Shown in pieces: positions 11,216-46,049 of a DNA stretch of 64,000 nucleotides. The translations under genes and the position numbers were made by a program. The notes below the pieces were generated by a model. That model worked only from the letters and a program-made list of their open reading frames with translations, was not told the origin of the DNA and did not search any database. Each line of letters starts with the position of its first letter. The stretch's first letter is position 1. Origin of the DNA: Fimbriimonadales bacterium (GTDB lineage Bacteria > Armatimonadota > Fimbriimonadia > Fimbriimonadales > ATM1); assembly GCA_041744215.1 (NCBI GenBank), contig JBGTLG010000039.1:1-64000 (forward strand), in the 5' to 3' direction.

Positions 11216-12433
11216 ATGCGTCGCTACACAGTCCTGACTATCTCGACCTCCGGCGTCTTTCTTATGATCGTCGGCGTGCTAACGAACACGCAGACATTGT
11301 TTTACATGAGCACCGTCATGATCCTGATGCTGATTGTGATGCGGCTACAGGCGGGGCTTGCAACCAGGGGCCTTCGATTCGAAAGAATTGCACCAACTAC
11401 GATTGTCGCTGGCGAACTTATCACGATGCGGATCAGGGTTTGGTCTTCGATCCGGCTACGAAGGCCGCTCCTCTTCATTATCGATGACCTGCCTCCTGGA
11501 CTATTACATCAGGCGGACATGCGGCCTTTGCCAGTCGCGCCAGATTTTGAACAGGCTGTTGAGACCCGCTACGAATTGCGCCCGCACAAACGAGGCATTT
11601 TTCGATGGTCTACCATTCGCGTATCTAGCACTGATTCATTAGGCATAATCAGAGTTGAGAAGTCGTATGAGACCGAGCCTATCGAGTTGGTAGTCTATCC
11701 GTCCCAGATTCCTTTTGGGCTCGATCTGGTAGCTCTAAGTGGATGGGGCGCGAACCAAGCCGATCAAGGTCGAAACCGAGGCCAGGGAATTGAACCGAGA
11801 GGAGTCCGCGAGTTTCGCTCTGGAGACTCTTTGCGATTCGTTCATTGGAGGACTACTGCGCGCACCGGTCAATTGCAGGTTAAGGAGTTTGAAACGGGTT
11901 TCAATACGAACGTGACGATTCTGATTCAACAAACAGCTGGAAGCGAAGCGGGGAAAGGCGCCTACACGACACTCGAAGCAATGTGTGGCCATGCAGCATA
12001 CTTAGCGGATGTTCTCTTGCAGCGGGGGAGCCCAGTGAAGTTGCCGAATCTCGAACCTGCCGGCGCCGAACCTGCGAATTCTGCAGGTATTCGGTACGAG
12101 CAGATAGCAGAGGCACTGGCGGCGGCAGCAGCAGACCGCTCGGAGCCATTTGCCTTCGAGGTCGACTCCCTTATTGAGACTCTGGGACCTTCGTCGACTG
12201 TGGTTCTCTTCATGGCGGCAGCGGAGCCGGGACTCGCAGAGTCTATTCGAAGGCTTGCTGGGGTGGCCTCGGTCGTCGCACTGGTATACAGCCCAGATCA
12301 CTTCGCCGGCGACAAGATTGATGTCCGGCTTAGGCCGTCGATTGACCCTGACTTTCTAGCGAAAATCGCCGCTCCAACCGTGGCGATAAGACTGATGCAA
12401 AACCCCTATGCAAGCGACACACAAGCGGCTTAG
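11216..12433 (+). CDS. DUF58 domain protein
   Basis: REFRSGDSLRFVHWRTTAR, VKEFE; follows moxR. Confidence 0.9.
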   Translation: MRRYTVLTISTSGVFLMIVGVLTNTQTLFYMSTVMILMLIVMRLQAGLATRGLRFERIAPTTIVAGELITMRIRVWSSIRLRRPLLFIIDDLPPGLLHQADMRPLPVAPDFEQAVETRYELRPHKRGIFRWSTIRVSSTDSLGIIRVEKSYETEPIELVVYPSQIPFGLDLVALSGWGANQADQGRNRGQGIEPRGVREFRSGDSLRFVHWRTTARTGQLQVKEFETGFNTNVTILIQQTAGSEAGKGAYTTLEAMCGHAAYLADVLLQRGSPVKLPNLEPAGAEPANSAGIRYEQIAEALAAAAADRSEPFAFEVDSLIETLGPSSTVVLFMAAAEPGLAESIRRLAGVASVVALVYSPDHFAGDKIDVRLRPSIDPDFLAKIAAPTVAIRLMQNPYASDTQAA

Positions 12434-22961: not shown

Positions 22962-24689
22962 TTGATGATACGCAAAATGAAAGTATTAGTTGGAGTTGCT
23001 CTAGGGGCAACGATGGTGGTGTCCGCGGTCGCGCAGACAATCACGCTTCCGGATTACTTCGTTGAGACAATCGTAGCGGGAGGGACCGGGCTTTCGCAAC
23101 CCACAACAATGGCCTTCATCGGGTCGAACGACTTCTTGATACTTGAGAAAGCGACCGGTAACGTGAAGCGCTATACGAACGGTGCGTTCCAAGGTGTTGT
23201 GCTTAATGTGCCGGTAAACTCATCCAGCGAACGTGGACTACTGGGCATCTGCTTGCATCCTGATTTTCCAGTTGTCCCTCAGGTTTATCTCTACTATTCG
23301 CGTGCGGCGACCGCAGGAGGAACGTGGTTGGACAACCGCGTCGATCGATTCAATTGGAATGGCACCAATCTGACGTTCGACATGAACATCATTTCGTATC
23401 CTTCCTCTGCATCGCAAGCTAATGGCGCGAATCACGACGGCGGAATCATCATGATTGGTCCCGACCGAAAGCTCTACGTCGTCACCGGAGATCTAAACCG
23501 TGGTCGATTTGCGAATCCTCGTATCGAGCAGAACACCAGCACTACTGCGGTTGCAGACGTTGGCGGGATTGACCGGCTTGAGCTTGACGGTGGCACACCT
23601 GTAGATAACCCTTTCATTGGTCATGCGGATCCACGCATTCGAAAGTACTTCGCCTACGGGGTACGGAACTCGTACGGCATGTGCTATGACCCAGTCACAA
23701 ACAAGGTTTGGATCACCGACAACGGGCCCAACGTTTATGACGAGATCAACTACGTTGAAGCCGGATTCAATGGCGGTTGGCTAAAAATCATGGGTCCCGA
23801 TTCGCGCAATGCGACGTACACCGAAAACGGCTTCACTTCGTTCAACGCCGGCGACCTCACAGTACTCCCAGGCTCGCACTACCGAGATCCGGAATTCAGT
23901 TGGTTGGCGCCAATCGGGGTCACATCGATTCGCTTTCTGAGCAGCGAAAAGTTCTATCCAAGTGAGCGTAATGGGATGCTCGTCGGCGATAACAACACTG
24001 GCCAACTCTACTTTTACGAGATGACTCCTGCGCGCGACGCGCTCGTCCTGTTTGGAGGAACTCTTGACAAAGTTGCTGACTCAACCGCGGAGAGGAACCA
24101 GCACAGAGTTGGAACTGGCTGGGGCGTGACCACCGACATAGTGATTGGCCCTGATGGCTATGCGTACCTCGTAAGCCTGTCGGCAGGCGCAGTTCGCCGG
24201 ATACGACCCTCGATCGAGACAGTCTATGCCAACAGCTACACGCTTAACACAGGTGTAGAGGTAGGTGGAAATCTTCAGTCGTTGCGCGAGAGCGACAACG
24301 ACCGACTATCGATTCGCGAGGTGCCACCAGTGGCGCTGGGCGGGCCGTCGGTTGTTGTGACGGTGTTTGGCCTTTCGCCGGTCCTTGCGCCCACAGAACT
24401 TCGGTTGATCGTCGAGCACTCGACTACCGGCGTTCCTGCAAGCGCGGTGACTATTCGAACGATGATGTTCAACTTCCAAACTAACTCCTACGACATCGTG
24501 GATCAACGAGCAGGAACCGCTGCCGACACTGTCGTGGAGGTAGTCATCGGAAGCAACACTTCGCGATACATTAACCAGGCCACAAATGAAGTGAGGACGA
24601 GGATCCAATACTTCGATCCTGGAACATTGTTCTCATTCGGCTGGGTGGGAAGGATAGACCAAGTCAATTGGAGAGTTCGTGTACAGTAG
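22962..24689 (+). CDS. Secreted PQQ-dependent sugar dehydrogenase (GSDH) with C-terminal beta domain, copy 1
   Basis: ERGLLG, NHDGG, GVRNSYG, DEIN; signal peptide. Confidence 0.88.
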   Translation: MMIRKMKVLVGVALGATMVVSAVAQTITLPDYFVETIVAGGTGLSQPTTMAFIGSNDFLILEKATGNVKRYTNGAFQGVVLNVPVNSSSERGLLGICLHPDFPVVPQVYLYYSRAATAGGTWLDNRVDRFNWNGTNLTFDMNIISYPSSASQANGANHDGGIIMIGPDRKLYVVTGDLNRGRFANPRIEQNTSTTAVADVGGIDRLELDGGTPVDNPFIGHADPRIRKYFAYGVRNSYGMCYDPVTNKVWITDNGPNVYDEINYVEAGFNGGWLKIMGPDSRNATYTENGFTSFNAGDLTVLPGSHYRDPEFSWLAPIGVTSIRFLSSEKFYPSERNGMLVGDNNTGQLYFYEMTPARDALVLFGGTLDKVADSTAERNQHRVGTGWGVTTDIVIGPDGYAYLVSLSAGAVRRIRPSIETVYANSYTLNTGVEVGGNLQSLRESDNDRLSIREVPPVALGGPSVVVTVFGLSPVLAPTELRLIVEHSTTGVPASAVTIRTMMFNFQTNSYDIVDQRAGTAADTVVEVVIGSNTSRYINQATNEVRTRIQYFDPGTLFSFGWVGRIDQVNWRVRVQ

Positions 24690-26436
24690 GTCACACTCAA
24701 ACAAAGTAAATCGAAGGAGCGTGAGACGATACTGCGTGTCGATCTTGCTCGCGTCAGGTGCCCTTGCAAACGCTAGCCCAGCAGCAGGGCAAACGCTAAA
24801 TCTGCAAGGGTACTTCTACGAAACAGTTGCCACGGGGTTGTCATTTCCCACTATGATGGCCTTCGTGGACCACAATGACTTCCTCGTTCTCGAAAAGAAT
24901 ACGGGAAAAGTGAAGCGATATGTGAATGGGGTGTTCGTGGGCGAAGTACTCGACTTAGCGGTGTCGAACCAAAGCGAGCGCGGACTGCTCGGTATCGTAA
25001 GTCATCCCGACTTTCCTCAAGTGCCAAAATTCTACGTATACTATTCACGAGCAACAGTTGACGGAGGAACATGGCTCGATAACAGGGTCGAGACGTTTAC
25101 ATGGAATGGCACGACGCTCGTTGTCGATCAACTGATCGCGGATTGGCCACCTGACCCCACGCAAAACAACGGGCCAAATCATGATGGCGGATACATGGTC
25201 ATCGGCCCAGATCGAAAGCTATACATCCAAACGGGAGACCTTAACCGTGGTCGATTCAACAATCCAAGAATCGAGCAAAACACAAGCTCAACTGCAGTGG
25301 CTGGCGTTGGCGCGATCGAAAGGAGAGAACTTGATGGCTCGGCTCCCCCAGACAATCCGTTCTTCTCACATTCGGATCCACGAGTTCGAAACTACTACTG
25401 CTACGGCTTTCGAAACGGTTATGGAATGGCATTTGATCCCGTCACAGACATACTTTGGATGACAGAAAACGGATCAGGCAGCTACGATGAAATCAACTAC
25501 TGTCTTCCTGGACTCAACTCCGGGTGGGTGAAAATCATGGGGCCAGACAAGCGTGACGCCTCATATGCAGAAAATGGGTTCCAGGTTTTTGATGCAGAAG
25601 ACTTGTTTTACTTGCCAGGCTCGCACTATCGCGACCCGGAGTTTAGTTGGCTGGCGCCTGTAGGAGTTACCGCACTCGAGTTCTTGCGAAGCCGAAAGTT
25701 TTACCCATCCGAGAGAAACGCAATGTTCGTCGGCGACATCAATGGCGGGCGGCTCTTTTATTTTCAACTAACGCCCTCTCGTGACGAACTCGAACTCTTT
25801 GGCGGGACTTTGGATAAGGTTGCAGACACGCTGGAAGAGCGCAATCAGCACGTCGTTGGCACTGGATTTGCAGGAATAACCGATATAAAAATTGGTCCAG
25901 ATGGTTATGCGTACATCGTCAGCTACTTCAACGGTGCTGTTTACCGCATTCGACCAATTGTTGAGACAGTCTATGCAACTTCATTGCAGATGTTGACAGG
26001 CGTCATTCAATCTGGCGGACTCGCAGAGCTCGAGGAGAGCGATGATTTGAAGTTCATCGTTCGCGAAGCCCCACCAATTGCGCTCGGCGGACCTTCTGTC
26101 GCGTTCTTTATCGAAGGCACCTCGCCGGAGGCTTCTCCAGTCGAAGTTTCCTTCGTTGCCGAATTTTCGACCAGCGCTGCGCCTGCACCCGCGACTACCT
26201 TCCGTACTAGTTTGTTCAACTTCCAAACAAACTCATACGAGATTATCGATTCCCGTGCCGGAACAGCTACGGACGTTTCTTTTGAGGTCAGCATCACGAA
26301 GAATCCTTCGCGCTTTGTCGACCCGACTTCGCGGACTATCAGAGCAAGGTTTCAAGTGCTGGATCCCGGCACCTTGTTCACGTTTGGTTGGGCTGCCCGC
26401 TTTGATACAGCCGTTTGGAAAGTAACCGTCCGTTAG
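24679..26436 (+). CDS. Secreted PQQ-dependent sugar dehydrogenase (GSDH), copy 2
   Basis: Same motifs, collinear with copy 1; start uncertain. Confidence 0.88.
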   Translation: MYSRSHSNKVNRRSVRRYCVSILLASGALANASPAAGQTLNLQGYFYETVATGLSFPTMMAFVDHNDFLVLEKNTGKVKRYVNGVFVGEVLDLAVSNQSERGLLGIVSHPDFPQVPKFYVYYSRATVDGGTWLDNRVETFTWNGTTLVVDQLIADWPPDPTQNNGPNHDGGYMVIGPDRKLYIQTGDLNRGRFNNPRIEQNTSSTAVAGVGAIERRELDGSAPPDNPFFSHSDPRVRNYYCYGFRNGYGMAFDPVTDILWMTENGSGSYDEINYCLPGLNSGWVKIMGPDKRDASYAENGFQVFDAEDLFYLPGSHYRDPEFSWLAPVGVTALEFLRSRKFYPSERNAMFVGDINGGRLFYFQLTPSRDELELFGGTLDKVADTLEERNQHVVGTGFAGITDIKIGPDGYAYIVSYFNGAVYRIRPIVETVYATSLQMLTGVIQSGGLAELEESDDLKFIVREAPPIALGGPSVAFFIEGTSPEASPVEVSFVAEFSTSAAPAPATTFRTSLFNFQTNSYEIIDSRAGTATDVSFEVSITKNPSRFVDPTSRTIRARFQVLDPGTLFTFGWAARFDTAVWKVTVR

Positions 26437-27368
26437 CGCGAAAAAAAGCTTCTGATAAAGAAGAAAAGGTTAGCGGGTCGCTCCGCAAGCCTGCGCGTGA
26501 AGTACGGATACCAACTGCTGCCGTAGGGGACATACACGCGGACAATGTTTCCACGCTTTTTGAGCTGCTGTTGAAGATTCCTCCGTATTCCGTACAGGAA
26601 TTGGTACTCGAAGCGACCGTGAGAGATGTCGCTTCGATCCGCAAACTCATTAATCTGATCAATGATTGCAGAGTCATGGGTGGCGATGCCCGGATGCACC
26701 GCATCGCGTATGAGTTTGCAGGCTGCCATCACGAACGCTTCGTTGACTGCCTTCTTTTTTGTGAGCGCAACAGCTGCTGATTCCAAGTAAGCGCCCTTGA
26801 CTAACCGTATTCGGACTCCCGCCGCCACGAGTCGCTCAATATCCGTCGGTGTCCGGTGGAGCATTGCCTGCAAAACTGTTCCAACATTTCGATGCCGCTG
26901 CGCGGCATTGAGTACCAACCGGATGGTCACGTCTGTCAGCGCACTCTCCTCCATGTCGATGCGGACGAAGATCGGAGGATCGCTGGCTGCTGCCAAAAGA
27001 CTCTCAAGCCGACCCGCGCACCTGGCCTCATCGATGTGCGCACCAAGTTGTGATAGCTTTATCGAGATGTTGATTCTCTCAGGGATCCACCCCCCGAAGT
27101 GCGGCGATTCCGAAATGGCCTGAACTAAGCTAAGGTACTCCTGGAGAGCGGCGTCAGCTTCTTCATCCGTTGCGACATTCTCGCCCAGCAGATCAAGGGA
27201 AACCTTGTAGCCCTCGGAAGCGAGGCTCTCTGCGACAGCCATCGCCTCTTCCAGGGTGTCGCCCGCGACGAAGCGCCGAACAACGCCCCTGAACACCCGG
27301 CTTCTTCGAACGAACCGCTCAATGGCCTGGTTGCGGGCGAGAGAGAGTATGAGACTGCGCAAGATCAT
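26433..27368 (-). CDS. Monofunctional proline dehydrogenase
   Basis: RFVAG, DLLGE, RIDME, RLVKGAY, ATHD, YFTRRLAERPAN. Confidence 0.92.
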   Translation of the reverse strand: MILRSLILSLARNQAIERFVRRSRVFRGVVRRFVAGDTLEEAMAVAESLASEGYKVSLDLLGENVATDEEADAALQEYLSLVQAISESPHFGGWIPERINISIKLSQLGAHIDEARCAGRLESLLAAASDPPIFVRIDMEESALTDVTIRLVLNAAQRHRNVGTVLQAMLHRTPTDIERLVAAGVRIRLVKGAYLESAAVALTKKKAVNEAFVMAACKLIRDAVHPGIATHDSAIIDQINEFADRSDISHGRFEYQFLYGIRRNLQQQLKKRGNIVRVYVPYGSSWYPYFTRRLAERPANLFFFIRSFFSR

Positions 27369-27638
27369 GCGGCGTCGGCGATACTACCGAATCCTTCCTG
27401 ATGGTATAATCCGCCCGTGCTCAAAATCGCCCCGCCTAACTCCAGGGCGATCGCGGTTGCCCAGCGCACGTGGGGATGAACGAGATCATTTGCATGCAGG
27501 CCCGCCTAACACGCCAGTTTCAATTGCCCACCAGTATGGCCAGGATGGCCCCCGACCAACATTTTTGCCTCAAATCTTGAATCCACTAGCTGCCAGAAGG
27601 TACGCTTATGGTTTGTCGCTCACCTGCCGGAGGGTTGA

Positions 27639-30600
27639 ATGAAAGAGATCAAGCACGCCTCGAGTCCGCTAAGCCAGGTTCTCGAGGTCCCGAACCTCAT
27701 AGAGGTTCAATTGAACTCATACAAGCAGTTTCTTGAACAAGGACTTCCCGAACTTCTAAAAAGCTTCTCCCCGATCAAAGATTTCACCGGGTCGAACTAC
27801 ATAGAGTTTCTCGATTTCTCGCTCGGAGAGCCTAAGTACGACATCGACGACTGTCGCGACCGCGACGTTACGTTTGAGGCGCCCATCAAGGTGCGGGTCC
27901 GACTAGGCGGCCGAGACCGGGAGGTCATCGAGTCGGAGGTCTACCTCGGAGACTTGCCCCTGATGACGAACCAAGGGACGTTCATCATCAATGGACGTGA
28001 AAGAGTCATCGTCTCCCAACTAAGCCGTAGCCCCGGCGTTTACTTCTTTGACGAGCCCCAGCAGGCGACAAAGTGGGAACTCCGCCACGTCCTCATGCAT
28101 CGGCTTCCCCTCCGTGCGGAGGTGCTCCCAAACCAAGGCAAGTGGCTTGAGGTCAGCGAAGCCGAACCGAATTTCGTCCTGTTCGCACCGCTGAATCAGA
28201 GCAAAAAGATCCCCGTAACCCAGTTGCTCAAGGTTTTGTCCGCGTTCGAGACGGCGCGCGTCCCGACGCGATTGCTGGTTGAGAACGCAGTGAACAAGCG
28301 GCTAGCTGAGCCTCTTGCCGACCCGGAGACCGGCGAGGTCCTCGGCGACGCCGAAACTCTGCTTACGCAAGAATTCATTGACAGCCTTCCAAAGAGCGTC
28401 CGGGGCACCAAGGCGGTGGTTCACACCCCCGTCGGATCGAACGAGGAGCTCGTTACCTCTTTCGGTGTCAAACACGTGCTGAAGTCCCCGAAAGAAGGCG
28501 ACCTGATCGGAAAGCGCGCGACAGGGGACATCAAGGATGGAGACGAGGTCGTAATCGCGAAATCTGGCCGGATTGATCGAGACGTGGCAAAGAAGATCGC
28601 TGCGATGGGCCTGAAGCGACTTGAGGTCATTGAGGTCAACCCATTTATTGACGCGACTCTCGAACACGACACTACGGATTCGACCAAAACCGCCCTCAAA
28701 GACCTGCATAGAAAGTTGCGTCCAGGAGAGTCACCTGACGAGGAGAACGCTAAGTCACAGTTCTATTCCCTGTTCCTGGACCCTAGAAACTATGATTTAG
28801 GCCGAGTCGGGCGACACCAGATGAATCGCCGCCTCGGGATCGAACTCCCGGACACGGCGCGCAACATAACCATCGAAGATGTGGTTGCGATGATCAATCG
28901 ACTCGGGCTACTGCTCGAAGGCGAGATCGGCGGCGACAACATCGACCACCTTCAAAACAAGCGCATCAAATCGATCGGCGAATTGCTTCTCAATCAGATG
29001 CGTGTCGGCCTCAGCCGGATGGAGAAGGTAGCTCGAGAGAGAATGACAAGCGCCGAGCCAGAGAACTTGCTGCCCGGGATCATTCTGAGCGTGAAGCCAG
29101 TTACGGCAAGCATCCGCAGCTTCTTCAGCAGTAGTCACCTGAGCACGTTCATGGATCAGACCAACCCGCTAAGCGAACTGTCAAACAAGCGGAGACTCTC
29201 GACTCTGCCGGATCGCAGACCGTCCGCGTCTGGGCGCGCGGGAGTTGTCGACGCGCAACGTGAAGTTCAGCCAAGCGAATATGGCCGAATCTGCCCCATC
29301 GAGACGCCGGAAGGGCCCAACGTAGGACTTATGAAACAGCTCAGCGTATACGCAAAGATCGATGAAGACGGTTTCTTGCACGCGCCTTTCCGAACCGTCA
29401 AGAACGGCAAGGTTACTGACGAACTCAGCTATCGCGTATCAGGAGACGAGGACGACAAAAAAGTAGCCCCGCCGGATACACCTCTTGGCCCCAACGGCGA
29501 AATCTTGGACGATCCTGTTATGGTTCGTTTCCGAGGCGAATTCCCCGAAGTTCCTCGCAACGACGTTGAGCTTATGGACGCTTCGCCGCTCATCTTTTCT
29601 GTCGCAGCTTCCTGTGTTCCATTCCTGAATCACGACGACGGGGCACGGGCCCTGATGGGCGCGAATATGCAGCGCCAGGCAGTGCCCTTGCTCCGTTCAG
29701 AGGGGGCCTTCGTTAGCACCGGTTATGAAGAGAGAATCGCCCGCGATACAGGGACGACCATCCTCGCGCACCGGTCGGGCATTGTGAGAAACGTCACGGC
29801 GTTGTCGATCCAGATTGAAGCCGACGACGACGGCACTCTCGATGTGTACCCTCTGGAGCACCTGCGCCAGTCGAACAAGTCTACGTGCTTCACGCACAGA
29901 CCGCAAGTGTTTCCGGACGAGCGGGTCACAAAGGGTCAGCCAATCGCCGATGGCCCATCCTGTCACGACGGAAAACTTGCCCTTGGCAAGAACCTCGTTG
30001 TCGCGTTCATGCCGTGGCGTGGCTACAACTTCGAAGACGCGATTTTGGTGAGCGAGCGACTGGTCAAGGAAGACACGTTTACGTCCATCCATATCGAACG
30101 ATACGACACCGAAGCGGTCGACACAAAGCTTGGGCCGGAAGAAATCACCCGAGATATTCCGAACGTCGGTGAAGAGGCTTTAAAGGATCTTGACGAAAGT
30201 GGCATCGTCCGGATCGGAGCCGACGTGCGTCCTCTCGACATCCTCGTAGGAAAGGTCGCTCCGAAGGGTCAGGTTGAACTAACGGCCGAAGAGCGACTCA
30301 TCATCGCGATCTTCGGGAAGAAAGCGGAAGAAACTCGCGACGTATCGTTGCGAGTCCCACACGGCGAGCAAGGCACAGTCATCGACGTGAAGGTATTCAG
30401 CCGCTACAAGTACCGCGACAAGGCGACCGGCAAGATTTTCCACGAGTCGAAGAAGCGCGAGCACATGGTGAGTGAGATAACAGGCGGCGATCTGGAGCAG
30501 ATTCCAGGTGATGAGCTACCTGCCGGAACGAACATGACTGTCCAGGTGCATGTCGCGCAAAAGCGCAAGATTACGGTCGGAGACAAGATGGCGGGGCGGC

Positions 30601-31655
30601 ACGGAAACAAGGGTGTCATTTCGCGGATCGTCGCTGAGGAAGATATGCCTTTCCTCGCCGATGGACGCCCGGTGGACATCGTGCTGAACCCACTCGGCGT
30701 ACCGAGCCGATTGAATGACGGTCAGATGCTTGAGTCGCTGCTCGGATTGGCGGGAGCGAAGCTTGGCATTCGCTTCATCTGCCCTGCGTTCGAGGGCTCA
30801 AGGCCTGAGCAGGTGATGGCGGAGATGCGGCGCATCGCCGAACAAACTCGCCGAGACGTTTTGCAGGCATACGTAAACTCGGAACTGGGCCTCAATCTCA
30901 GTTTCAAGCGAGGTGTGGCTGTACAAGAGATGCTGAATGAGATCGAGGACGCGCTTCGCAAGCTTGGGAAGACCCGGCTCGAGGCGGTATCGAGGCTCGT
31001 AGCCGCCGAACCTGCGATAAGCGTCGCAGACATGGATCCTGAAGCCGAGTTCGTTGTTGAAGACAATGAACCCGCGCATAAGGCTCCTGATCCAGTGTAC
31101 ATATCGATCCTCGATGCGATCCGACAACGTGTTTGGGTTCGCGCCGGAATTGATGAGACAACCGGAAAGAGTCTGTTACGCGATGGTTGGTCTGGCGACT
31201 TCTTGGAGTTCCCCGTCTCTGTTGGCGTGATGTATATGTTCAAGCTTGAGCACCTCGCCGAAGAGAAGATTCACGCTCGGAGCATTGGCCCATATTCTCT
31301 GGTAACTCAGCAGCCGCTTGGCGGAAAAGCCCAGTTCGGCGGCCAGCGCTTCGGAGAAATGGAAGTCTGGGCGCTCGAAGCGTATGGCGCGGCGAATACA
31401 TTGCAGGAGATCATCACGATCAAGTCTGACGATGTGATGGGCAGAGTCAAAACGTACGAGAGCATCGTGCGTGGAGAAACAATGCTCGAGCCAGGGATAC
31501 CAGAATCGTTCAAGATCCTCGTCAACGAGCTAAGGAGCCTCGGCTTGCGCGTCACAGTTGAGGACGCAAACAACCGGGAAATCAGCCTCCGAGACCTAGA
31601 CGAGCATTCGCAGGGCGACGACATGAAGCTCGCGAGATCAGTCGGCTTCTTTTGA
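27639..31655 (+). CDS. rpoB: RNA polymerase beta subunit (divergent)
   Basis: CPIETPEG, RALMGANMQRQ, GDKMAGRHGNKG, GGQRFGEMEVWALEAYG. Confidence 0.98.
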   Translation: MKEIKHASSPLSQVLEVPNLIEVQLNSYKQFLEQGLPELLKSFSPIKDFTGSNYIEFLDFSLGEPKYDIDDCRDRDVTFEAPIKVRVRLGGRDREVIESEVYLGDLPLMTNQGTFIINGRERVIVSQLSRSPGVYFFDEPQQATKWELRHVLMHRLPLRAEVLPNQGKWLEVSEAEPNFVLFAPLNQSKKIPVTQLLKVLSAFETARVPTRLLVENAVNKRLAEPLADPETGEVLGDAETLLTQEFIDSLPKSVRGTKAVVHTPVGSNEELVTSFGVKHVLKSPKEGDLIGKRATGDIKDGDEVVIAKSGRIDRDVAKKIAAMGLKRLEVIEVNPFIDATLEHDTTDSTKTALKDLHRKLRPGESPDEENAKSQFYSLFLDPRNYDLGRVGRHQMNRRLGIELPDTARNITIEDVVAMINRLGLLLEGEIGGDNIDHLQNKRIKSIGELLLNQMRVGLSRMEKVARERMTSAEPENLLPGIILSVKPVTASIRSFFSSSHLSTFMDQTNPLSELSNKRRLSTLPDRRPSASGRAGVVDAQREVQPSEYGRICPIETPEGPNVGLMKQLSVYAKIDEDGFLHAPFRTVKNGKVTDELSYRVSGDEDDKKVAPPDTPLGPNGEILDDPVMVRFRGEFPEVPRNDVELMDASPLIFSVAASCVPFLNHDDGARALMGANMQRQAVPLLRSEGAFVSTGYEERIARDTGTTILAHRSGIVRNVTALSIQIEADDDGTLDVYPLEHLRQSNKSTCFTHRPQVFPDERVTKGQPIADGPSCHDGKLALGKNLVVAFMPWRGYNFEDAILVSERLVKEDTFTSIHIERYDTEAVDTKLGPEEITRDIPNVGEEALKDLDESGIVRIGADVRPLDILVGKVAPKGQVELTAEERLIIAIFGKKAEETRDVSLRVPHGEQGTVIDVKVFSRYKYRDKATGKIFHESKKREHMVSEITGGDLEQIPGDELPAGTNMTVQVHVAQKRKITVGDKMAGRHGNKGVISRIVAEEDMPFLADGRPVDIVLNPLGVPSRLNDGQMLESLLGLAGAKLGIRFICPAFEGSRPEQVMAEMRRIAEQTRRDVLQAYVNSELGLNLSFKRGVAVQEMLNEIEDALRKLGKTRLEAVSRLVAAEPAISVADMDPEAEFVVEDNEPAHKAPDPVYISILDAIRQRVWVRAGIDETTGKSLLRDGWSGDFLEFPVSVGVMYMFKLEHLAEEKIHARSIGPYSLVTQQPLGGKAQFGGQRFGEMEVWALEAYGAANTLQEIITIKSDDVMGRVKTYESIVRGETMLEPGIPESFKILVNELRSLGLRVTVEDANNREISLRDLDEHSQGDDMKLARSVGFF

Positions 31656-31704
31656 TCAAAACAGGGCATAGCCCACAAAACAACTCAGGAGACTCAAAAC
31701 AACA

Positions 31705-32001
31705 ATGGCAAGTGTAAGATTCGTATTCGACAGCGGCGACGTAATCATCCCCGCAGAGACAGACCGCAGCGCAAAGCTGATCATGTCAGGCTTCCGGCGA
31801 AAGATGGAGGCCGGCGATGAGATGATCGATGTCAAAGGAAAGGACGGCGTTCGGCTAGTTAATGCGGGCAAAGTGAACTACATCGAAATCGTCGGCGGCT
31901 CAGCCCGCAGCAGCAAGCCCGCGGCACGCGGAGGCGCAACGGCGAAGAAGACAGTTCGTAAGGCGAAGACCACTCCCGCGCGCGGTCGTAAGCGACGATA
32001 A
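31705..32001 (+). CDS. Small hypothetical protein with basic tail between rpoB and rpoC
   Basis: 98-aa ORF with AGGAG upstream; ~63-aa globular part plus K/R/A-rich tail. Confidence 0.8.
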   Translation: MASVRFVFDSGDVIIPAETDRSAKLIMSGFRRKMEAGDEMIDVKGKDGVRLVNAGKVNYIEIVGGSARSSKPAARGGATAKKTVRKAKTTPARGRKRR

Positions 32002-32046
32002 CAGCCACCGCCGTATTGGCAACCAAACTGGAGTTGAAATCACAGC

Positions 32047-35000
32047 ATGCCCGACGTAACTCTTTTTGAAAAAATCCGTGTGGGAATTGCGAGCCCGGAA
32101 GACGTTCTCGCATGGTCTCATGGCGAAGTAAAGAAGCCCGAGACCATCAACTATAGAACGTTCAAGCCGGAGCGTGATGGACTTTTCTGCGAGCGGATTT
32201 TTGGACCGGTCAAAGACTGGGAGTGCCACTGCGGTCGATACAAGAAGGTCAAGTACAAGGGCATCGTGTGTGAGAGGTGTGGCGTCGAAGTCACCCGGTC
32301 GCGCGTGCGCCGCGAGAGGATGGGTCACATCGAACTCGCGGCGCCCGTGTGTCACATTTGGTTTTTGAAGGGCGTCCCTTCGCCGGTTGCGCTTCTCCTA
32401 AACATCGGACCACGCGATCTTGAAAAGGTCGTCTACTTTGGGTCGTTCATCGTCATCGACCTTGACAAAGTGGGCCTCGACGAGGGCCGGTCACAGATTG
32501 AAGAACTAGTCGAGCTCGAAAAGTCCGCGCTCGAGCAAAGCATGGCTGAGCTTGAGGAAGAGATTCGCGACGCATTCGCCAGCGAGTTGGAGGAGAACAA
32601 GGACGAGTATGACGAGTCAATCATCAAGGATCGCACGAAAGCGGTCAATGATCGGATAAAGGCCGAGCAGCGAGACTCCCAAGATCGCGTCAAAGAGATG
32701 GATGTCGCGCTGGAAGTACTGTATAAGCTTGAGCAGAATCAACTGATCGAGGAAGACAAGTTCCGAGCTGTCGATCGGATGTTGAATGCTGTGTCCCGTC
32801 GAAGCGGCAAGCAGTACAACCAGATGCTTAAAGCTGGCATCGGTGCGGCTGCGATCAAGGAGCTTCTGCTCCGGGTCAACCTCGACTCGACTTCCAAGGA
32901 GCTTCGCGCAGGCATCATGCGGAGCCAAGGACCAAAGCGCGCGCGCATGATTAAGCGCCTCGAAATTGTCGAAGCGTTTATCAACTCGAAGACTAAGCCC
33001 GAGTGGATGGTCCTAGAGGTAATGCCCGTGATCTCGCCTGAGCTACGGCCCATGGTTCAGCTTGATGGCGGCCGGTTCGCGACATCCGATCTCAACGATC
33101 TCTACCGACGCATCATCAATCGGAACAATCGTCTGCGCAAGATTATAGAAATCCGGGCTCCTGAATCAATCATCAATCATGAGAAGCGTTTGCTGCAAGA
33201 AGCGGTAGACGCACTTGTCGATAATGGCCGTCGGTCCCGACCGGTGGTCGGCAGCAACAATCGTGCTTTGAAGTCCTTGAGCGACATGCTTAAAGGCAAA
33301 GAGGGACGGTTCCGAAAGAACTTGCTTGGAAAGCGTGTGGACTATTCTGGAAGAGCTGTCATTGTGGTGGGTCCTCACCTCAAGCTCCATCAATGCGGTT
33401 TGCCGAAAGAAATGGCGCTTGAGCTGTTCAAACCCTACGTGATGAAGGCGCTCGTGGACCAAAAGCTCACGCAGAACATCAAGACTGCGAAGCGCATGAT
33501 CGACCGAATGCACCCGGCAGTGTGGGATGCTCTTGAGGAAGTCATCAAAGATCACCCGGTGCTGCTTAACCGCGCTCCAACGCTCCACCGATTCGGCATT
33601 CAAGCCTTCGAACCGATCCTCGTCGACGGCAAGGCGATCCAGGTGCATCCACTCGTGTGTCCGCCCTTCAATGCGGATTTTGACGGTGACCAGATGGCCG
33701 TGCACGTTCCTCTCAGCGCTGCCGCACAGGCCGAAGCACGCATCCTAATGCTGTCGAGCAATAACCTGTTCTCGCCAGCGGATGGACAGCCGACGATGGC
33801 ACCGGTACAGGACATCATTCTTGGATCGTACGCACTAACTGCTCTCAACCGTAAAGCGCTTACGCGCTTCGAAGCGGAGACAGCTGCGCATCGGAAGGAT
33901 CCCGAAAAAGTGCGCGCACCGATGACGTTCTCGTCCCCTGACGAGGCAATCCTCCTTGCAACGCACCCAGATGCCGCGGTTCGGATTCCACTGAACGACC
34001 CCGTTTTCGTCCGTGTCCGACGTCCATCCGGATTAGCAAATGAAGCGGGCGAGTTCGAAGAGTGGGAGACTGTCGTGCGACAAATGACGCCCGGTCAGTT
34101 GATCTTCCACGAAGTGCTCCCGTACCCAGTAAAGCACCACGATGATTGGATTGGAGTCGAGTTCACAAAACGAAACCTGACTCGGCTCATCACTCACGTA
34201 CGCAACGCAACTTCAACGCAAAAGACTGTCGAGATGTTGGATCAAATCAAGGAGCTCGGATTCGAGTGGGCGACACGATACGGATTGACAATCGCGCTTT
34301 CGGACGTAGACCCGCGCTCCGCTCCAACTTCCGACCTATCGCTTGTCAATGAAATGGCACGGCGCGAAATCGCAGGTCAGGCCATCAGCCATGATATCGA
34401 GAAAGATTTTGAAACTGCAGGACGATTGAAGGGCCTGATTGAGGCTAAGATCGGCGAAGCTAAAAAGGCGACCACCGAAGTTCGAAAGCACTATCAGCTT
34501 GGCACGATGGCGACGAACGAGCGAGACCGAAAGCTACAAACGATTTGGCAGGGCGCGTTCGGAGCGCTGTCCGACACTATTGTTACGGAGATGGGGCAAT
34601 TCAACCCGCTTCGAATGATGGTCGACTCAGGCGCAAGGGGATCGCGTGAGCAGTTGGTTCAGCTGATGGCAACGCGCGGAATGTTCCGTAACAACTTCAA
34701 TCAGCCGATCACGGACATTGTAGGTGGCAACGGGTTGTTCGATGGCTCACGTGTGTTCGAGTACTTCGTGTCGATGTTCGGTGCCCGAAAGGGTGTCACG
34801 GATACCGCGCTCTTGATGGGTTACTCCGGATTCATCGCCCGCCGTCTCGTTGATGTGTCACACGACATCGTGATCAAAGCTGAGGACTGTGGCACCACCC
34901 AGGCCATCTACGTCGCGAAGATTATCAAAGAAGGGGACGTCGTTGAGCAACTCAGCATTCGATGCAAGGGTCGAACGTCGATTGAACGAGTTACATTGCC

Positions 35001-36762
35001 TGGCAGCAAGGAAGAAGTCGTGCTCTGCGAAGCTGGTGACGCCTTTGGCGACAAGGGTGCGGCGCTCTTAGACGAAGCCGACGCTCTCTATTACAAGCTT
35101 CGAAGCGATGCTCAAGAGGCGAAAGACGTCGATAAGGCGACCGAGAAAGTCGAGGCCGACTTCCGCAAACACGGCTTCCGCATTGGTGAGCACGGCGAGT
35201 TGCAGGTATCAATCAGGAGTCCGCTTACGTGCGATCTCGACAGCGGCATCTGTTCCAAGTGCTATGGCTGGGACCTCTCGACCAAGAAGTTCGCCGAGGT
35301 TGGCCTTGCAGTTGGCGTCATCGCAGGTGAAACGATGTCTGAACCTCTGTCTCAGTTGACGATGAGAACATTCCACCACGGCGGCGTTGCGACGGGCACG
35401 GTCCTTACTGGATACAACCAAGCTGGGCGAATGTACGGCACACTACACCAAGAGCTCAAGGTTGACCTCAAGACTGATGAGCTTGACGTGCATGAGATGC
35501 CGGACTTTATTGGTGAGCAGCGCGGCTTGCTCGATGAACTCACGGGGAAGGCCGAGCGGCTCAAGGCCGAAGCAGAGAAGCCGACAAAGAAGACTAAAAA
35601 GTCCTTGACGCCTCCTCCGCGAACCACAGCGAACCGTCAACTCGCTCGGGAGTTGGTGGAGCACTCGTTCTATCACTACGTAGGCATACCCTTCGTAGAG
35701 AGGCTTCTTGAAGCTCGTCGCGCGCCCAAGGGTGAGGCAGTCGTGTCTCGCTACGATGGTGTGGTCGACACAATCAAGGTCGGTCAGCTTGGTCGATGGA
35801 TTGTGATCCGGGCTATCGTCACCCCTGGGGAGCACGACATCGCTGGTAAGACGATCGCTGAGCGGGTCCTCCATCCAGAAACGAAAGAGACACTTATCGA
35901 AGCTGGCACAGAGATCAACAAGGCAGCTACCGACAAGCTTGCGAAGCACGGCGTGGAGAAGCTCACGATTTTCGAAGTGATCCTTCTTCCGAAGCGTCGA
36001 ATCCTTCTGGTTGAGACAGGCGACAAAGTCAAAGCGGGCGATCCTCTCACCCAGGGTCCGCTCGATCTTGGCAGCCTCCTCGAGTTCCGAGGAGTTCGCG
36101 CGGTGCAAGAATATCTGGTAAGTGAACTTCAGTCGATTTACAAGTCGAATGGCGTTAGCATCAACGACCGTCACTTGGAGGTCATCTGTCGCCAGATGCT
36201 GCGAAAGGTTCGCATAAAGGAAGGCGGTGACTCAAAGTTCTTGCCCGGCCAAATCATAGATCGATTCGCTTTCCGAAGAGAGAACGAACGTCTTCAGCAG
36301 ATGATTGCAGCGAAAGAAGAAGTCGAGTATGAGGACATTGAAACCAGCGACATGAAGAAACGGCTTCCGATTCCTGCCACGGCTGATGCAGTCATTCAGG
36401 GCATCACCGAAGCCGCCCTAACGACTGAGTCATTCCTATCGGCGGCCTCCGCGCAGAAGACTGTTCGTGTGCTTACAGACGCGGCCGTCAAGGGGCGCAC
36501 AGACGATCTAGTGGGCCTAAAGGAAAACGTGATCATTGGGCGGCTGATCCCCGCCGGATCAGGATTCCCGGCATACCGAAACATCGCCGTCAAGACGACG
36601 CGAGAGCCGGTGTGGGCAAAGGCTCCTATCACGGCACTCGCGAGTATGCAAGACCGCGAGGATGTGGAGGAGATCGAAGAATTCGACGAGAGCGATATCG
36701 GAGATATCCGATCGCTCGCTGAGAGCCTCGGCGCAGAACGCGTCGACGAAGCAGACGTTTAG
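32047..36762 (+). CDS. rpoC: RNA polymerase beta' subunit (divergent)
   Basis: N-terminal Zn ribbon, [30 protein letters not shown]. Confidence 0.98.
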
Positions 36763-36768
36763 AGAACA

Positions 36769-36817
36769 GAAGTAGATCCGGCAACGGGCTGGTAGTAAGC
36801 CCTGCCGGATCTACTTC
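36769..36817. terminator. Long hairpin between convergent genes, probable bidirectional terminator
   Basis: GAAGTAGATCCGGCA...TGCCGGATCTACTTC 15-bp inverted repeat. Confidence 0.6.
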
Positions 36818-37676
36818 CGTTCTGGAATCAACGTCCAGTTCACCTGGCACGGCGAGCCCTCGCTCGTCGTGATCACGCGGCGGAAATCAAAGTCAAAGCA
36901 GATTGCCTCGCTCTGGCCCTCGAATGGAACTGGTATTGCCGCAGGTCGCTTTGTGAACCAATCGTCCGGTGATCCTTCATAGAGTAAGGCTGCCAGATAA
37001 GTTCGAATCACGACTCGCGTGCCGTTGGCGTTCATATCCCCAGCAGTTGCCATTCGCATCAGAGGAGTTGAGCCATCAAGACGTAAAGTCCCCAACCTCC
37101 GCAGTGTTGACTCACCGTGCTTGAGATCAGAAAAGTAGACACCGCTCTCACCATCTCGTGACTTTGTGACAAGCTGAACGTTGCCTTCGGGAGTGACGAG
37201 CAGAGCTTCACAATCATGCTCGCCGTCAGGGTATCTAAGAACAAACTTCTCGAACTCTGTCACTTGGATGCTGCCCGCAGCTGTCGATGGCTCAGGGATT
37301 CGGTAGACGATGACCGACTGGCGGATGCGATTGTTGTCACCAATGTCTCCCACGAAAAGATAAGGCTTGCCATTGATCGTAGCGCTTGCAATGTCTTCCC
37401 AATCTACCGCCTCGACACCCTTCAACGTGTAAGTCCCCAAGTCCTTTCCGCTCGCATCGAACGCATAGAGGTTTGCGCCGTCTCCGCTGTCGTTGTGTGT
37501 CCAGTAAACGCCCCTTGTGAGCCGAGAAAGGGCTATTCCACTACTTTCGACAACCTCAGCGCTTTCAAGAGTACACAGCCTGCCAAAGACCTGCTGTTCG
37601 ATAACGGGTAGTCTGGCCTCAACATTTGCGGAAGCACAGCCTGCAACAAAAGCCATAACGCAAATGAGTGTGCGCA

Positions 37677-37677
<1 letters not shown>
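36811..37677 (-). CDS. Putative lipoprotein, conserved beta-propeller-like family
   Basis: Lipobox VAGC; ESSG, HNDSGD, DWEDIA, GDIGDN, DCEAL motifs. Confidence 0.7.
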
Positions 37678-41384
<3,707 letters not shown>

Positions 41385-44296: not shown

Positions 44297-44824
44297 ATGA
44301 CCACACTTCTCGCTACCCTCATCCTCTCGACCGGATTTGCGCCGGCCCAGGATCCAAACCCGCAGGTTTCCTTGACAATTCAGTCACGGGGAGAGATGGT
44401 CATTGAGCTTTTTCCGCAAGACGCGCCGAAAACTGTGGCCCAGTTTCTCAAACTGGTCAACAGTGGCTTCTACAACGGTGTTCTGTTTCACAGGGTTGAG
44501 AACTACCCCCGCCCGTTTATCGTGGTGACTGGTGATCCGTTGACCAAAACCCTTCCGCTGACCGACCCGCGAATTGGGACCGGGGGGAGCGGCAACACGC
44601 TTCTCTTCGAAAGCAACAAGCGCTCCTTTGCCAATGGAACCGTCGGGCTTGCTCGCGACCAGAAGGATAAGAACAGCGGAGACAGCCAGTTCTTCATCTG
44701 CAACGGCCCGCAGAAGTTTCTTGACGGCTCATACGTCGCGTTCGGGCAAGTCGTAAAGGGCATTGAGATTATCCCCAACATTGCGTTGGGTGATAAGGTT
44801 ACGTCGGTACGCCAAACTCGCTGA
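44297..44824 (+). CDS. Exported cyclophilin-type peptidylprolyl isomerase
   Basis: APKTV, FYNGVLFHRV, SQFFI, LDGSYVAFGQV. Confidence 0.92.
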   Translation: MTTLLATLILSTGFAPAQDPNPQVSLTIQSRGEMVIELFPQDAPKTVAQFLKLVNSGFYNGVLFHRVENYPRPFIVVTGDPLTKTLPLTDPRIGTGGSGNTLLFESNKRSFANGTVGLARDQKDKNSGDSQFFICNGPQKFLDGSYVAFGQVVKGIEIIPNIALGDKVTSVRQTR

Positions 44825-44879
44825 TCAAGGCACTGCCCGATGGGATGCGGCCCCGGCACCCAGGTACCCTTCGGATCAG

Positions 44880-46049
44880 ATGCACTACATTGACCCATTC
44901 GGAAAGGACGACCTTGTCACGCTTCGAGCCATCCGTGAAGATCATTGTGTCTCGCTCTACCTGCCAACCCACCGGAAAGGGTCAGAGGTTGCTCAAGATC
45001 CCATTCGGCTTAAGAACCTGATTGCGCGAGCTGAGGAAGTCCTCAAGACCAGGGGAGCACGCTGGGACGTCATCGAATCCATCCTAGGCGAAGCGAAACA
45101 GCTTCTCGACAAGGAGTTTTTTTGGCAGCACCAGGCAGACGGTCTAGCGATATTCGCAAAACCAGGCGAAACACGAGCGTTTCGAACCGGAGTCGGCTTT
45201 GGCGAGGCGGTGACAGTGAGCGGTCGCTTTGACTTAGCGCAGATGGTTCGACTTCTCGCTTCCGATGGCCGATTCTACGTGCTCGCCCTGGGGGAGCAAA
45301 TGGTCAAGCTGCTGGAGGGTACGCGATTCAGCGTCTCCGAGATAGCGTTGGACAATCTGCCCCAATCCATTGACGACGCCCTCAAACTGGATGATCCTCA
45401 AAAGCAACTGCAGTACCATACGGGCGCAGGCGCCAGCTCCGGCGGCGGTAGAGCGGCAATCTTTCACGGACACCGATTCGATGGATCCGAAAACAAAGAG
45501 AACCTGAAGAGATTCTTCAACATCGTCGACCGCGGGCTGGAGCCCCTGTTTAAGCATTACCCTGCGCCGGTCGTCTTGGCTGCGGTGGAGTACTACTTCC
45601 CACTTTACTTGGAGGTCGCGAACATTCCGGGACTCGTCGAGGGCGGTATCAAAGGCAACCCCGACGTCATGCGAGACGAAGAGCTGCACAAGGCGGCTTG
45701 GAGCATCGTGTACCCAGCGTTCAAGAAGTCGCAGGAGGATGCACTGGAGCGTTACGCTCAAGTTATCGGTACCGGCCAAACTACACAGGGCGTGGAGGGC
45801 ACCGCGATAGCGGCATATCAAGGAAGGGTGGACACACTGTTCGTCGACACTGAGCCAGACGTTTGGGGCGAAATCGACGAAACAACCCAATCGGTCAGCA
45901 TCCACGAGGTTGAAAACGCAGGCGATCTCGAACTCGTCAATGAGACGACTCTTGCTGTTCTGACAAGCGGTGGAAGGGTGTTTACGATGCCAAGCGCAGA
46001 GGTTCCAGGCAGTGGCCCGATGGCCGCGATCCTTCGCTACGCTGGCTGA
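44880..46049 (+). CDS. baeRF family (aeRF1/Pelota-like) protein
   Basis: CVSLYLPTH, DPIRLKNL, GLAIFA, FYVLAL, AAYQGRVDTL, AAILRY. Confidence 0.8.
   Translation: MHYIDPFGKDDLVTLRAIREDHCVSLYLPTHRKGSEVAQDPIRLKNLIARAEEVLKTRGARWDVIESILGEAKQLLDKEFFWQHQADGLAIFAKPGETRAFRTGVGFGEAVTVSGRFDLAQMVRLLASDGRFYVLALGEQMVKLLEGTRFSVSEIALDNLPQSIDDALKLDDPQKQLQYHTGAGASSGGGRAAIFHGHRFDGSENKENLKRFFNIVDRGLEPLFKHYPAPVVLAAVEYYFPLYLEVANIPGLVEGGIKGNPDVMRDEELHKAAWSIVYPAFKKSQEDALERYAQVIGTGQTTQGVEGTAIAAYQGRVDTLFVDTEPDVWGEIDETTQSVSIHEVENAGDLELVNETTLAVLTSGGRVFTMPSAEVPGSGPMAAILRYAG

Follow-up and report, generated by a model that had tools for sequence, protein, structure and literature searches.

What does it mean when a bacterial RNA polymerase (RNAP) keeps its catalytic residues and yet has altered the mobile elements that surround them? 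The question is raised by a locus of a Fimbriimonadales bacterium (assembly GCA_041744215.1, contig JBGTLG010000039.1), of which positions 1 to 64,000 of the forward strand were analyzed (the whole of this 64,000-nt stretch is hereafter called the window). The locus comprises three open reading frames (ORFs) on the + strand, none of which contains internal stops: rpoB for the β subunit (P0001; 27639..31655; 1338 aa), an ORF of 98 aa (P0002; 31705..32001), and rpoC for the β′ subunit (P0003; 32047..36762; 1571 aa). An earlier reading made from the letters alone (hereafter, the sequence-only reading) regarded this locus as a candidate atypical RNAP system and offered two alternatives, namely that the sole RNAP of the lineage has co-evolved an unusual core, or that the locus encodes a specialized second RNAP. 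In our estimate, with a probability of about 0.72, the RNAP encoded in the window is the housekeeping enzyme, and most likely the sole one, of an uncultured family-level lineage of Fimbriimonadales, hereafter termed clade D, and is equipped with a co-evolved active-center control module.

Retained and altered elements of the two large subunits

In Pfam searches, P0001 contains all six Rpb2 domains and P0003 the five Rpb1 domains that make up the full set, and both proteins score above the NCBIfam equivalog cut-offs (1385.5 bits against 801.15 for rpoB, TIGR02013; 1375.2 bits against 963.5 for rpoC, TIGR02386). Their top matches in the PDB are bacterial β and β′ chains throughout, with an E-value of 0. 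The translations and alignments also bear out the claim of the sequence-only reading that the catalytic motifs are intact. The β motifs NFEDA, GDKMAGRHGNKG, MGANMQRQ and the KLEH/HARS region are present, and β′ retains the NADFDGD Mg-binding loop (residues 542–548, E. coli 458–464; 33670..33690, +), preceded by CPPF in place of C(A/H)AY, as well as the equivalents of the E. coli trigger-loop residues M932, R933 and H936. By these score and active-center motif tests the clade-D system is a bacterial RNAP, and a new kind of transcription system is improbable.

In what follows, clade D denotes the altered group, S its canonical nearest relatives (β P0016–P0023; β′ P0135–P0143) and F the Fimbriimonadaceae; the window coordinates of sub-features were worked out arithmetically from the residue numbers in the alignments. 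The alignments confirm that the mobile elements around the active center are altered, namely fork loop 2, F-loop, bridge helix and trigger loop. In β, the affected region covers residues 497–565 (E. coli 507–572; 29127..29333, +), which hold the rifampicin (Rif) clusters and fork loop 2, the latter forming a wall of the core recognition element (CRE) pocket and the streptolydigin site STL1. Within fork loop 2 proper (residues 524–547; 29208–29279, +), GPGG is lost, three residues are inserted, and REVQ..EYG stands in place of RDVH..HYG. Further replacements are found at residues 664–669 (E672N, A676G and N677A; E. coli 672–677; 29628..29645, +) and 1025–1034 (E. coli 1107–1116; 30711..30740, +), where M1107L is accompanied by a position, H1116, that varies within clade D. 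Two indels of β are specific to clade D, namely the three-residue insertion just mentioned and the loss of a single residue at E. coli β 659. In addition, a segment of the β lobe (residues ~136–169, E. coli ~150–185; 28044..28145, +) is rewritten and ~10 residues longer in this clade.

In β′, the F-loop is rewritten, and the F-loop and bridge helix together (residues 871–939, E. coli 738–805; 34657..34863, +) contain 12 changes specific to clade D at conserved columns. The bridge helix of clade D departs from the majority of the other sequences at 12/27 positions (E. coli 769–795), including 792, at which Asp or Asn is replaced by Tyr. Both arms of the trigger loop are affected: Q921E, S922T, I923M, G924S, G927L and T928S are located in the N-terminal arm (residues 1087–1116, E. 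coli 913–942; 35305..35394, +), and R1140F, E1143R and F1145L in the C-terminal arm (residues ~1210–1227, E. coli ~1134–1150; 35674..35727, +), with the stretch Q-L-T-M-R-T-F-H preserved. Toward the C-terminus, residues 1469–1473 (E. coli 1325–1329; 36451..36465, +) carry F1325A and T1329V. In addition, an insertion of ~35–38 residues (762–799; 34330..34443, +) follows E. coli β′ ~651 in at least 90% of D, in at most 10% of S and F together, and in 0% of the outgroups. The place of this insertion is presumably near the secondary-channel rim helices, which we take to be the docking place of Gre-type factors. A separate insertion interrupts the trigger loop (β′ ~1120–1205; window ~35404–35660). 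Its ~85–90 residues include many charged ones, and it is far shorter than E. coli SI3; an insertion occurs at the same place in S and F sequences and is thus an order-level trait.

Distribution and phylogeny of the altered state

Clade D comprises 13 β and 11 β′ database clusters, which are 66–100% identical to the window proteins and derive from ncbi, jgi, ena and lgn records, several of them labelled “Fimbriimonadales bacterium.” Among the β matches listed (the best 120 of 7,970, of which 31 were fetched), identity falls in steps of 90, 88, 81, 77–73 and 70–69%, continues at 68–63%, and reaches a plateau near 60% that includes Fimbriimonas ginsengisoli (P0079). The altered fork loop occurs in exactly the 12 closest β proteins (P0004–P0015; 69–90%) and in 0/19 of the more distant ones fetched; P0001 and the 12 others lack the canonical form (GPGGL ... 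RDVH ... HYGR), which is found in all 19 of the non-D sequences. Similarly, among the β′ homologs (120 matches listed, 19 fetched), the altered bridge helix is present in the 10 closest sequences (P0125–P0134; 66–88%) and in 0/9 of the more distant ones. The canonical center of the bridge helix, TA[DN]SGYLTRRL, and the canonical trigger-loop base, [IV]GEP[GA]TQ, are replaced in 11/11 clade-D β′ sequences.

A genome-contig search with the whole β protein provided 80 diverse GTDB loci, the best match listed being 61% identical. In these loci, GPGGL and R[DE][IV]H are kept in 76/76 rpoB ORFs that span the fork loop, the bridge-helix center in 61/61 β′ ORFs, and the trigger-loop base in 57/57. The sequence-only reading had named two findings that would overturn it, namely that the same motifs are common in already characterized RNAPs or that they result from faulty assembly. 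In the loci scanned, all 76 fork loops, 61 bridge helices and 57 trigger loops are canonical, and an assembly artefact is ruled out by the recurrence of the motifs in 12 further β and 10 further β′ clusters from several sources. A broader version of the same explanation, in which the locus would be a degenerating gene pair, a mis-assembly or a chimera, draws on the unusual motifs themselves and on nothing else. It has to contend with full-length frames, intact catalytic motifs, the occurrence of the altered state in those 12 β and 10 β′ clusters from independent sources, and the fact that no other parts of the proteins are as well conserved within the clade as the altered regions (see below), and we consider it hardly credible.

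Maximum-likelihood trees (quick search, LG+G4) were calculated with hand-picked outgroups, consisting of 16 (β) or 15 (β′) of the 80 loci and E. coli K-12 (L081). The comparison with Armatimonadota and outgroups that the sequence-only reading had proposed as a check gives a consistent answer: in both subunits, clade D is monophyletic, with a support of 100 in the Shimodaira–Hasegawa-like approximate likelihood ratio test (SH-aLRT), and is nested within the Fimbriimonadales beside canonical sister sequences. The topologies of the β and β′ trees are congruent, and clade D is still monophyletic (100) after removal of the altered regions. In β and β′ alike, the altered state is a derived trait that unites a single monophyletic clade. 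Without the altered regions, the stem of clade D measures 0.14 (β) and 0.24 (β′), the β′ stem of the Fimbriimonadaceae being 0.36. The burst of change was focal and not general, because the D stem without these regions is no longer than the neighboring stems; an overall acceleration of rate was considered and rejected for the same reason.

Scale, clustering and constraint of the changes

The extent of the replacement was measured as the number of columns with a conservation of at least 93% across all non-D rows (36 for β, 26 for β′) at which at least 90% of the D sequences depart from the others. Clade D has 19 such changes at 367 conserved columns in β and 30 at 366 in β′, 49 in all. With S as the focal group, the same count gives 1/330 (β) and 1/372 (β′), and with F it gives 2/325 (β) and 7/378 (β′), the last value being inflated by the presence of only four F rows for β′. 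The changes are strongly clustered. E. coli β 507–572 holds 11 of the 19 β changes but only 47 of the 367 conserved columns (hypergeometric P = 1.7e-6), and β′ 738–805, 913–942 and 1131–1150 hold 21 of the 30 β′ changes in 63 of the 366 conserved columns (P = 1.7e-11).

Constraint was expressed as mean pairwise identity in the altered regions and elsewhere. Within clade D, the altered regions are 89% identical in β (elsewhere 75%) and 95% in β′ (elsewhere 70%). Between D and S, the corresponding values are 64% (elsewhere 65%) for β and 50% (elsewhere 61%) for β′, and between S and F they are 95% (elsewhere 66%) and 77% (elsewhere 58%). The new state is evidently held by purifying selection, because the altered regions are 89–95% identical within D. 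The sequence-only reading had argued against decay from the full-length frames and the clustering of the changes, and it was right to do so: the regions that changed are the best conserved parts of both proteins within clade D. Judged by these comparisons, the pattern is that of one round of concerted replacement, after which purifying selection set in, and not that of decay.

A sole or a second polymerase

The sequence-only reading had taken the context of the locus, which is flanked neither by rplKAJL nor by rpsLG, as a sign that the RNAP might be specialized. This context is uninformative, because rpoB and rpoC of three canonical Armatimonadota relatives (L002, L003 and L004) likewise lack rplKAJL and rpsLG as neighbors: a racemase-like gene lies upstream in L004, a symporter gene lies downstream in L003, and in L002 the upstream gene is hisB and rpoC is missing downstream. 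The rpoB gene of L002 (6943–10959; 1338 aa), on a canonical Fimbriimonadaceae-type contig from a metagenome-assembled genome, is followed by metabolic genes on the minus strand, and no rpoC is found within 10 kb. Linkage of rpoB and rpoC is therefore not fixed in the group. Longest-contig values hint at a similar separation of the two genes in some members of clade D (P0007 and P0011).

According to the second alternative, the β and β′ subunits of clade D, perhaps together with the 98-aa protein, would be paralogs that exist beside a canonical rpoB/rpoC pair and serve a subset of genes or special conditions. The position of the pair away from ribosomal protein genes and the extra ORF would fit such an enzyme, and the canonical S sequences, which are just 63–68% (β) and 56–61% (β′) identical to those of the window, could in principle be co-resident with it. 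However, canonical relatives show the same stand-alone context, both subunits are nested congruently, and the stem of clade D is ordinary outside the hot regions. The signs by which a paralog might be recognized in the trees do not appear: D stems without the hot regions are ordinary, D is more diverse (13 β clusters) than its sister groups, which contribute six and two rows, and no mirrored topology is seen. As inferred from equal longest-contig values, S-type pairs reside on contigs of their own (193781, 195919, 118197 and 198946), and another D-type pair (P0004/P0125) resides on a further contig of 818,458 bp. The window itself is core chromosome. Outside the locus it is an ordinary stretch with, by Pfam, the housekeeping genes metG, ligA, glmS, a holA-like gene, sdhAB and yidC, and the G+C content of rpoBC equals that of the surrounding window. 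The extra rpoB copies known from actinomycetes are single β genes without a partner rpoC, and no bacterium is known to us that has two full sets of rpoBC on its chromosome. Of the two alternatives, the RNAP of the lineage itself with a co-evolved core fits all findings; the specialized second RNAP gains no support and is, in our judgement, very unlikely.

Predicted consequences for pausing, translocation and inhibitor binding

The positions of laboratory mutants used for comparison were taken from excerpts of four studies (PMC3957892, PMC4029172, PMC3959191 and PMC4499132). In the excerpt of PMC4499132, the CRE pocket is composed of β ~440–455 and 535–555 (fork loop 2), D446 and E546 appear to read a +2 guanine, and E546A suppresses most pauses. 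In clade D, the equivalent of E546 is Ala in 13/13 sequences, and L538 and V547 are also replaced. The equivalents of R151, W183, I445, D446 and K451, which we take to line the same pocket, are kept. A complete loss of the CRE pocket was considered and rejected, as only its fork-loop wall (L538, E546 and V547) is changed. Weakened contacts between the bridge helix and β lead, according to the excerpt of PMC3959191, to faster catalysis, slower translocation and insensitivity to pauses; β′ 750, 770, 774 and 777 are changed in clade D.

Several inhibitor pockets overlap with these elements. The streptolydigin site consists, in the excerpt of PMC3957892, of β 538–552, β 557–576 and β′ 769–795, in which residue β′792 (Asp/Asn) is important and D792G confers strong resistance. 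In clade D, 12/15 positions of STL1 (β 538–552) and 12/27 positions of β′ 769–795 differ, and β′792 is Tyr in 11/11 sequences. Among the salinamide resistance sites given in the excerpt of PMC4029172, where N677 is both a contact site and a site of high-level resistance, 7/11 in β′ and 2/3 in β are altered in clade D (9/14 in total); β′779 is Ala in the window protein and Thr in 10/11 D rows. These correspondences predict that the determinants of streptolydigin and salinamide binding are lost, that the CBR pocket is partly changed, and that CRE recognition and pausing are altered.

The Rif pocket shows a broader pattern: Q513T and H526N are common to all sampled Fimbriimonadales, and clade D adds Q510H, T525S, A532T and I572M. 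Across the order, Thr (or Ser) occupies E. coli β 513 and Asn occupies 526 (P0001 residues ~503 and ~516; window ~29145–29190). We take 513 and 526 to be classic rifampicin-resistance positions, and the other Rif sites of our list to be linked to resistance as well. This suggests that the Fimbriimonadales as a whole have a low sensitivity to rifamycins.

A proposed co-evolved control module and its possible origin

The model that we favor is that, on the stem of clade D, both large subunits changed together in one structural neighborhood. In β this is fork loop 2, which forms a wall of the CRE pocket; in β′ it includes the F-loop and bridge helix as well as the two trigger-loop arms, and a small number of neighboring positions belong to it too. 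Catalytic residues were retained, and the new state was then frozen by purifying selection. The resulting enzyme would employ the normal two-metal, trigger-loop-assisted mechanism, with a retuned coupling of the bridge helix, F-loop and β, such that translocation, pausing and the reading of non-template guanine at +1/+2 may be unlike those of E. coli. By analogy with the resistant mutants, streptolydigin determinants would be largely gone, 9/14 salinamide resistance sites altered and the CBR pocket changed in part.

As to what drove the replacement, selection by an inhibitor that binds in the pocket, followed by compensatory changes, is a possibility to which we give somewhat less than an even chance; direct adaptation of elongation kinetics carries a little over one third of the weight, and the remainder falls to compensated drift. 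Compensated drift, without adaptive meaning, also competes with the proposed module as a whole: one or a few slightly deleterious substitutions in the bridge helix and fork loop would have been fixed in a small population and set off a compensatory cascade, the outcome being an enzyme of near-normal properties. The location of the changes in mutually contacting elements of both subunits, fixed on one branch, is what such a cascade would produce, and no source of an inhibitor is evident in the window. The region also tolerates change, as E. coli survives the deletion of β 533–546; according to the excerpt of PMC4499132, the deleted RNAP supported growth, and the cells grew at an elevated Rif concentration of 50 ug/ml. 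However, the 49 changes hit positions with a conservation of at least 93% across the sampled phyla and are a large excess over the 1–7 seen in control clades, identity in the altered regions has stayed at 89–95% since then, and several known resistance sites are among the positions changed. Near-neutral drift with compensation is accordingly a rather unlikely account of the clade-D enzyme.

A number of points weigh against the co-evolved housekeeping RNAP as we have drawn it. That it is most likely the only RNAP of its host is a judgement from phylogeny, context and priors. The comparison set is small and hand-picked, with four rows in the β′ control of the Fimbriimonadaceae, and the clustering test applied working boundaries of our own to the F-loop, bridge helix, trigger loop and Rif clusters. 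Not every inhibitor pocket is remodeled: β 550, 560, 563 and 637 and β′F773 of the CBR pocket are unchanged, and the second streptolydigin segment (STL2, β 557–576) differs at only 3/20 positions. The predicted effects on function are drawn by analogy from single substitutions in the enzymes of E. coli, Thermus and Bacillus, and the joint replacement of many residues may bring back wild-type behavior. Finally, the window shows no biosynthetic cluster and nothing else that would point to an inhibitor.

It is tempting to go further and to speculate that clade D runs all of its transcription on an inhibitor-insensitive RNAP with an alternative control module, in which the 98-aa protein would serve as an accessory subunit peculiar to the lineage. 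We regard this fuller version as unlikely; if true, it would imply different rules for translocation, pausing and CRE reading, together with a natural insensitivity to several active-center inhibitors.

The gene between rpoB and rpoC

The sequence-only reading had also pointed to an extra gene at the locus, and this gene is real. An AGGAG sequence sits 13 nt 5′ of the ATG of P0002, and relatives were found in two clusters of a 5.8-billion-protein set and as three representatives in a 1.84-billion set, five in all. The six sequences of the family share 19 invariant columns, with an identity of 38–73% to P0002. On these comparisons, P0002 is a genuine gene whose family is very small. Among its relatives, P0124 has the same longest-contig value (5,681 bp) as the clade-D β P0005, which suggests that it holds the same position next to that rpoB. 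The ORF is missing from two canonical loci with adjacent rpoB and rpoC, in which the gap of 80–150 nt contains no ORF at all.

P0002 gave no match in Pfam, NCBIfam or relevant PDB profiles, the best Pfam result being Dodecin at E = 0.11 for 1/6 members. An AlphaFold2 model, based on the six-sequence alignment, consists of a domain of ~65 residues with a β-β-α-β-β-β order, followed by a disordered tail rich in Gly, Lys and Arg; the block means of the predicted local distance difference test (pLDDT) are 87–90 for residues 1–60 and below 50 for residues 68–90. The best Foldseek match of this model is Rv3208A of M. tuberculosis (7rus/7rur) at E = 1.6e-3, with Hfq/Sm-like folds far behind. The two align with a template modelling (TM) score of 0.68 (target) or 0.49 (query) and a root-mean-square deviation of 2.4 Å over 69 columns, but their sequences are only 10–15% identical, and P0002 adds the basic disordered tail. 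The resemblance in fold is tentative, the model being built on only six sequences, and the Foldseek description of the Rv3208A entry gives no function. The best match in a protein atlas, to an unnamed viral cluster, had a score (0.77) too low to be of use and was dropped. The 98-aa ORF is probably co-transcribed with the co-oriented rpoBC genes, and its product is possibly a lineage-restricted small basic protein associated with nucleic acids or with RNAP; this is a prediction, and we do not claim that the protein binds RNAP or is part of the enzyme.

Surroundings of the locus

The flanks are as the sequence-only reading had described them. A proline dehydrogenase gene (PF01619; 26433–27368, −) precedes rpoB, and rpoC is followed by an ORF of 288 aa (36811–37677, −) with a lipoprotein-like N-terminus, in which the signal peptide ends in a lipobox-like A-G-C. 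A scan of 27200–37000 for promoters and terminators gave counts of 4 against 3.8 and of 9 against 9.9 in shuffled sequences, with no excess in either case. In the same scan, the + strand between rpoB, the 98-aa ORF and rpoC contained no terminator-like site, which is weak evidence for co-transcription. No Rfam family matched 26000–38000 at E ≤ 0.1. The stretch of 270 nt 5′ of rpoB, without an Rfam match, is likely to be its promoter and leader. An ORF of 128 aa with a GTG start (27256–27642, +) ends within the region of the rpoB start codon; it matches neither Pfam nor NCBIfam and is probably not a gene.

Elsewhere in the window, a protein of 428 aa (44763–46049, +) matches the Pfam baeRF families, which are bacterial archaeo-eukaryotic release-factor-like families (family 3, E = 1.7e-42; family 7, E = 5.2e-39). 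A row of genes for a MoxR-type AAA ATPase, a DUF58 protein and a transglutaminase-like protein, followed by the holA-like gene, occupies 10265–14480 (+). Two tandem paralogous genes resembling glucose/sorbosone dehydrogenases (575 and 585 aa; 22962–26436, +) stand immediately upstream of the proline dehydrogenase gene.

Significance and comparison with known polymerases

Few segments of bacterial proteins are as conserved as the bridge helix, trigger loop, F-loop and fork loop 2, which are the targets of several antibiotics and underlie current models of the nucleotide-addition cycle and of pausing. Their joint natural replacement, with the catalytic residues kept, amounts to a covariation experiment that reveals which contacts must change together, and the clade-D enzyme would let one probe whether catalysis can be uncoupled from pausing and from CRE reading. 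The variation of drug-binding pockets that have been assumed to be universal bears on the prediction of intrinsic resistance in environmental bacteria. Moreover, rpoB and rpoC serve as phylogenetic markers, and a focal burst of this kind can distort the branch lengths of such lineages. No earlier description of such an RNAP was found in the open-access literature that was searched.

Compared with canonical bacterial RNAPs (6wvj and 8i23, chains C/D; E. coli K-12, L081), the clade-D enzyme has the same domain order and keeps the catalytic loop, MGANMQRQ, GDKMAGRHGNKG and the trigger-loop stretch. It differs by the 49 replacements at near-invariant columns, concentrated in fork loop 2, F-loop, bridge helix and trigger loop, as well as by the three additional residues in fork loop 2 and the insertion of ~35 residues after β′ ~651. 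The NCBIfam scores of the window β and β′ are 131 and 169 bits below those of the canonical sisters P0016 and P0135. The nearest named relatives are Fimbriimonas ginsengisoli and other Fimbriimonadaceae (P0079; P0147, P0155 and P0162; L002 and L003), with identities of 59% in β and 51–53% in β′. They share with clade D the replacements Q513T and H526N, a long trigger-loop insertion unlike that of E. coli, and the location of rpoB and rpoC away from ribosomal protein operons. By contrast, they keep GPGG, RDVH, and the canonical bridge helix and trigger loop, and L003 has no ORF between rpoB and rpoC.

Laboratory mutants, namely those resistant to streptolydigin, salinamide A or CBR703, the 533–546 deletion and E546A, are affected at the same positions as clade D, as far as the excerpts of the studies named above give them (β 538–552, 546, 569 and 677; β′ 750, 758, 763, 777, 779, 783 and 792). 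These are single substitutions and one deletion selected in the laboratory, whereas clade D carries dozens of natural, clade-wide changes in both subunits. The rpoB paralogs of actinomycetes, such as rpoB2 of Nocardia and rpoB(R) of Nonomuraea, encode a divergent β with altered residues in inhibitor pockets, which exists beside a canonical β and has no matching β′. By contrast, the β and β′ subunits of clade D are altered together, are encoded by adjacent genes, and behave phylogenetically like the organismal copy.

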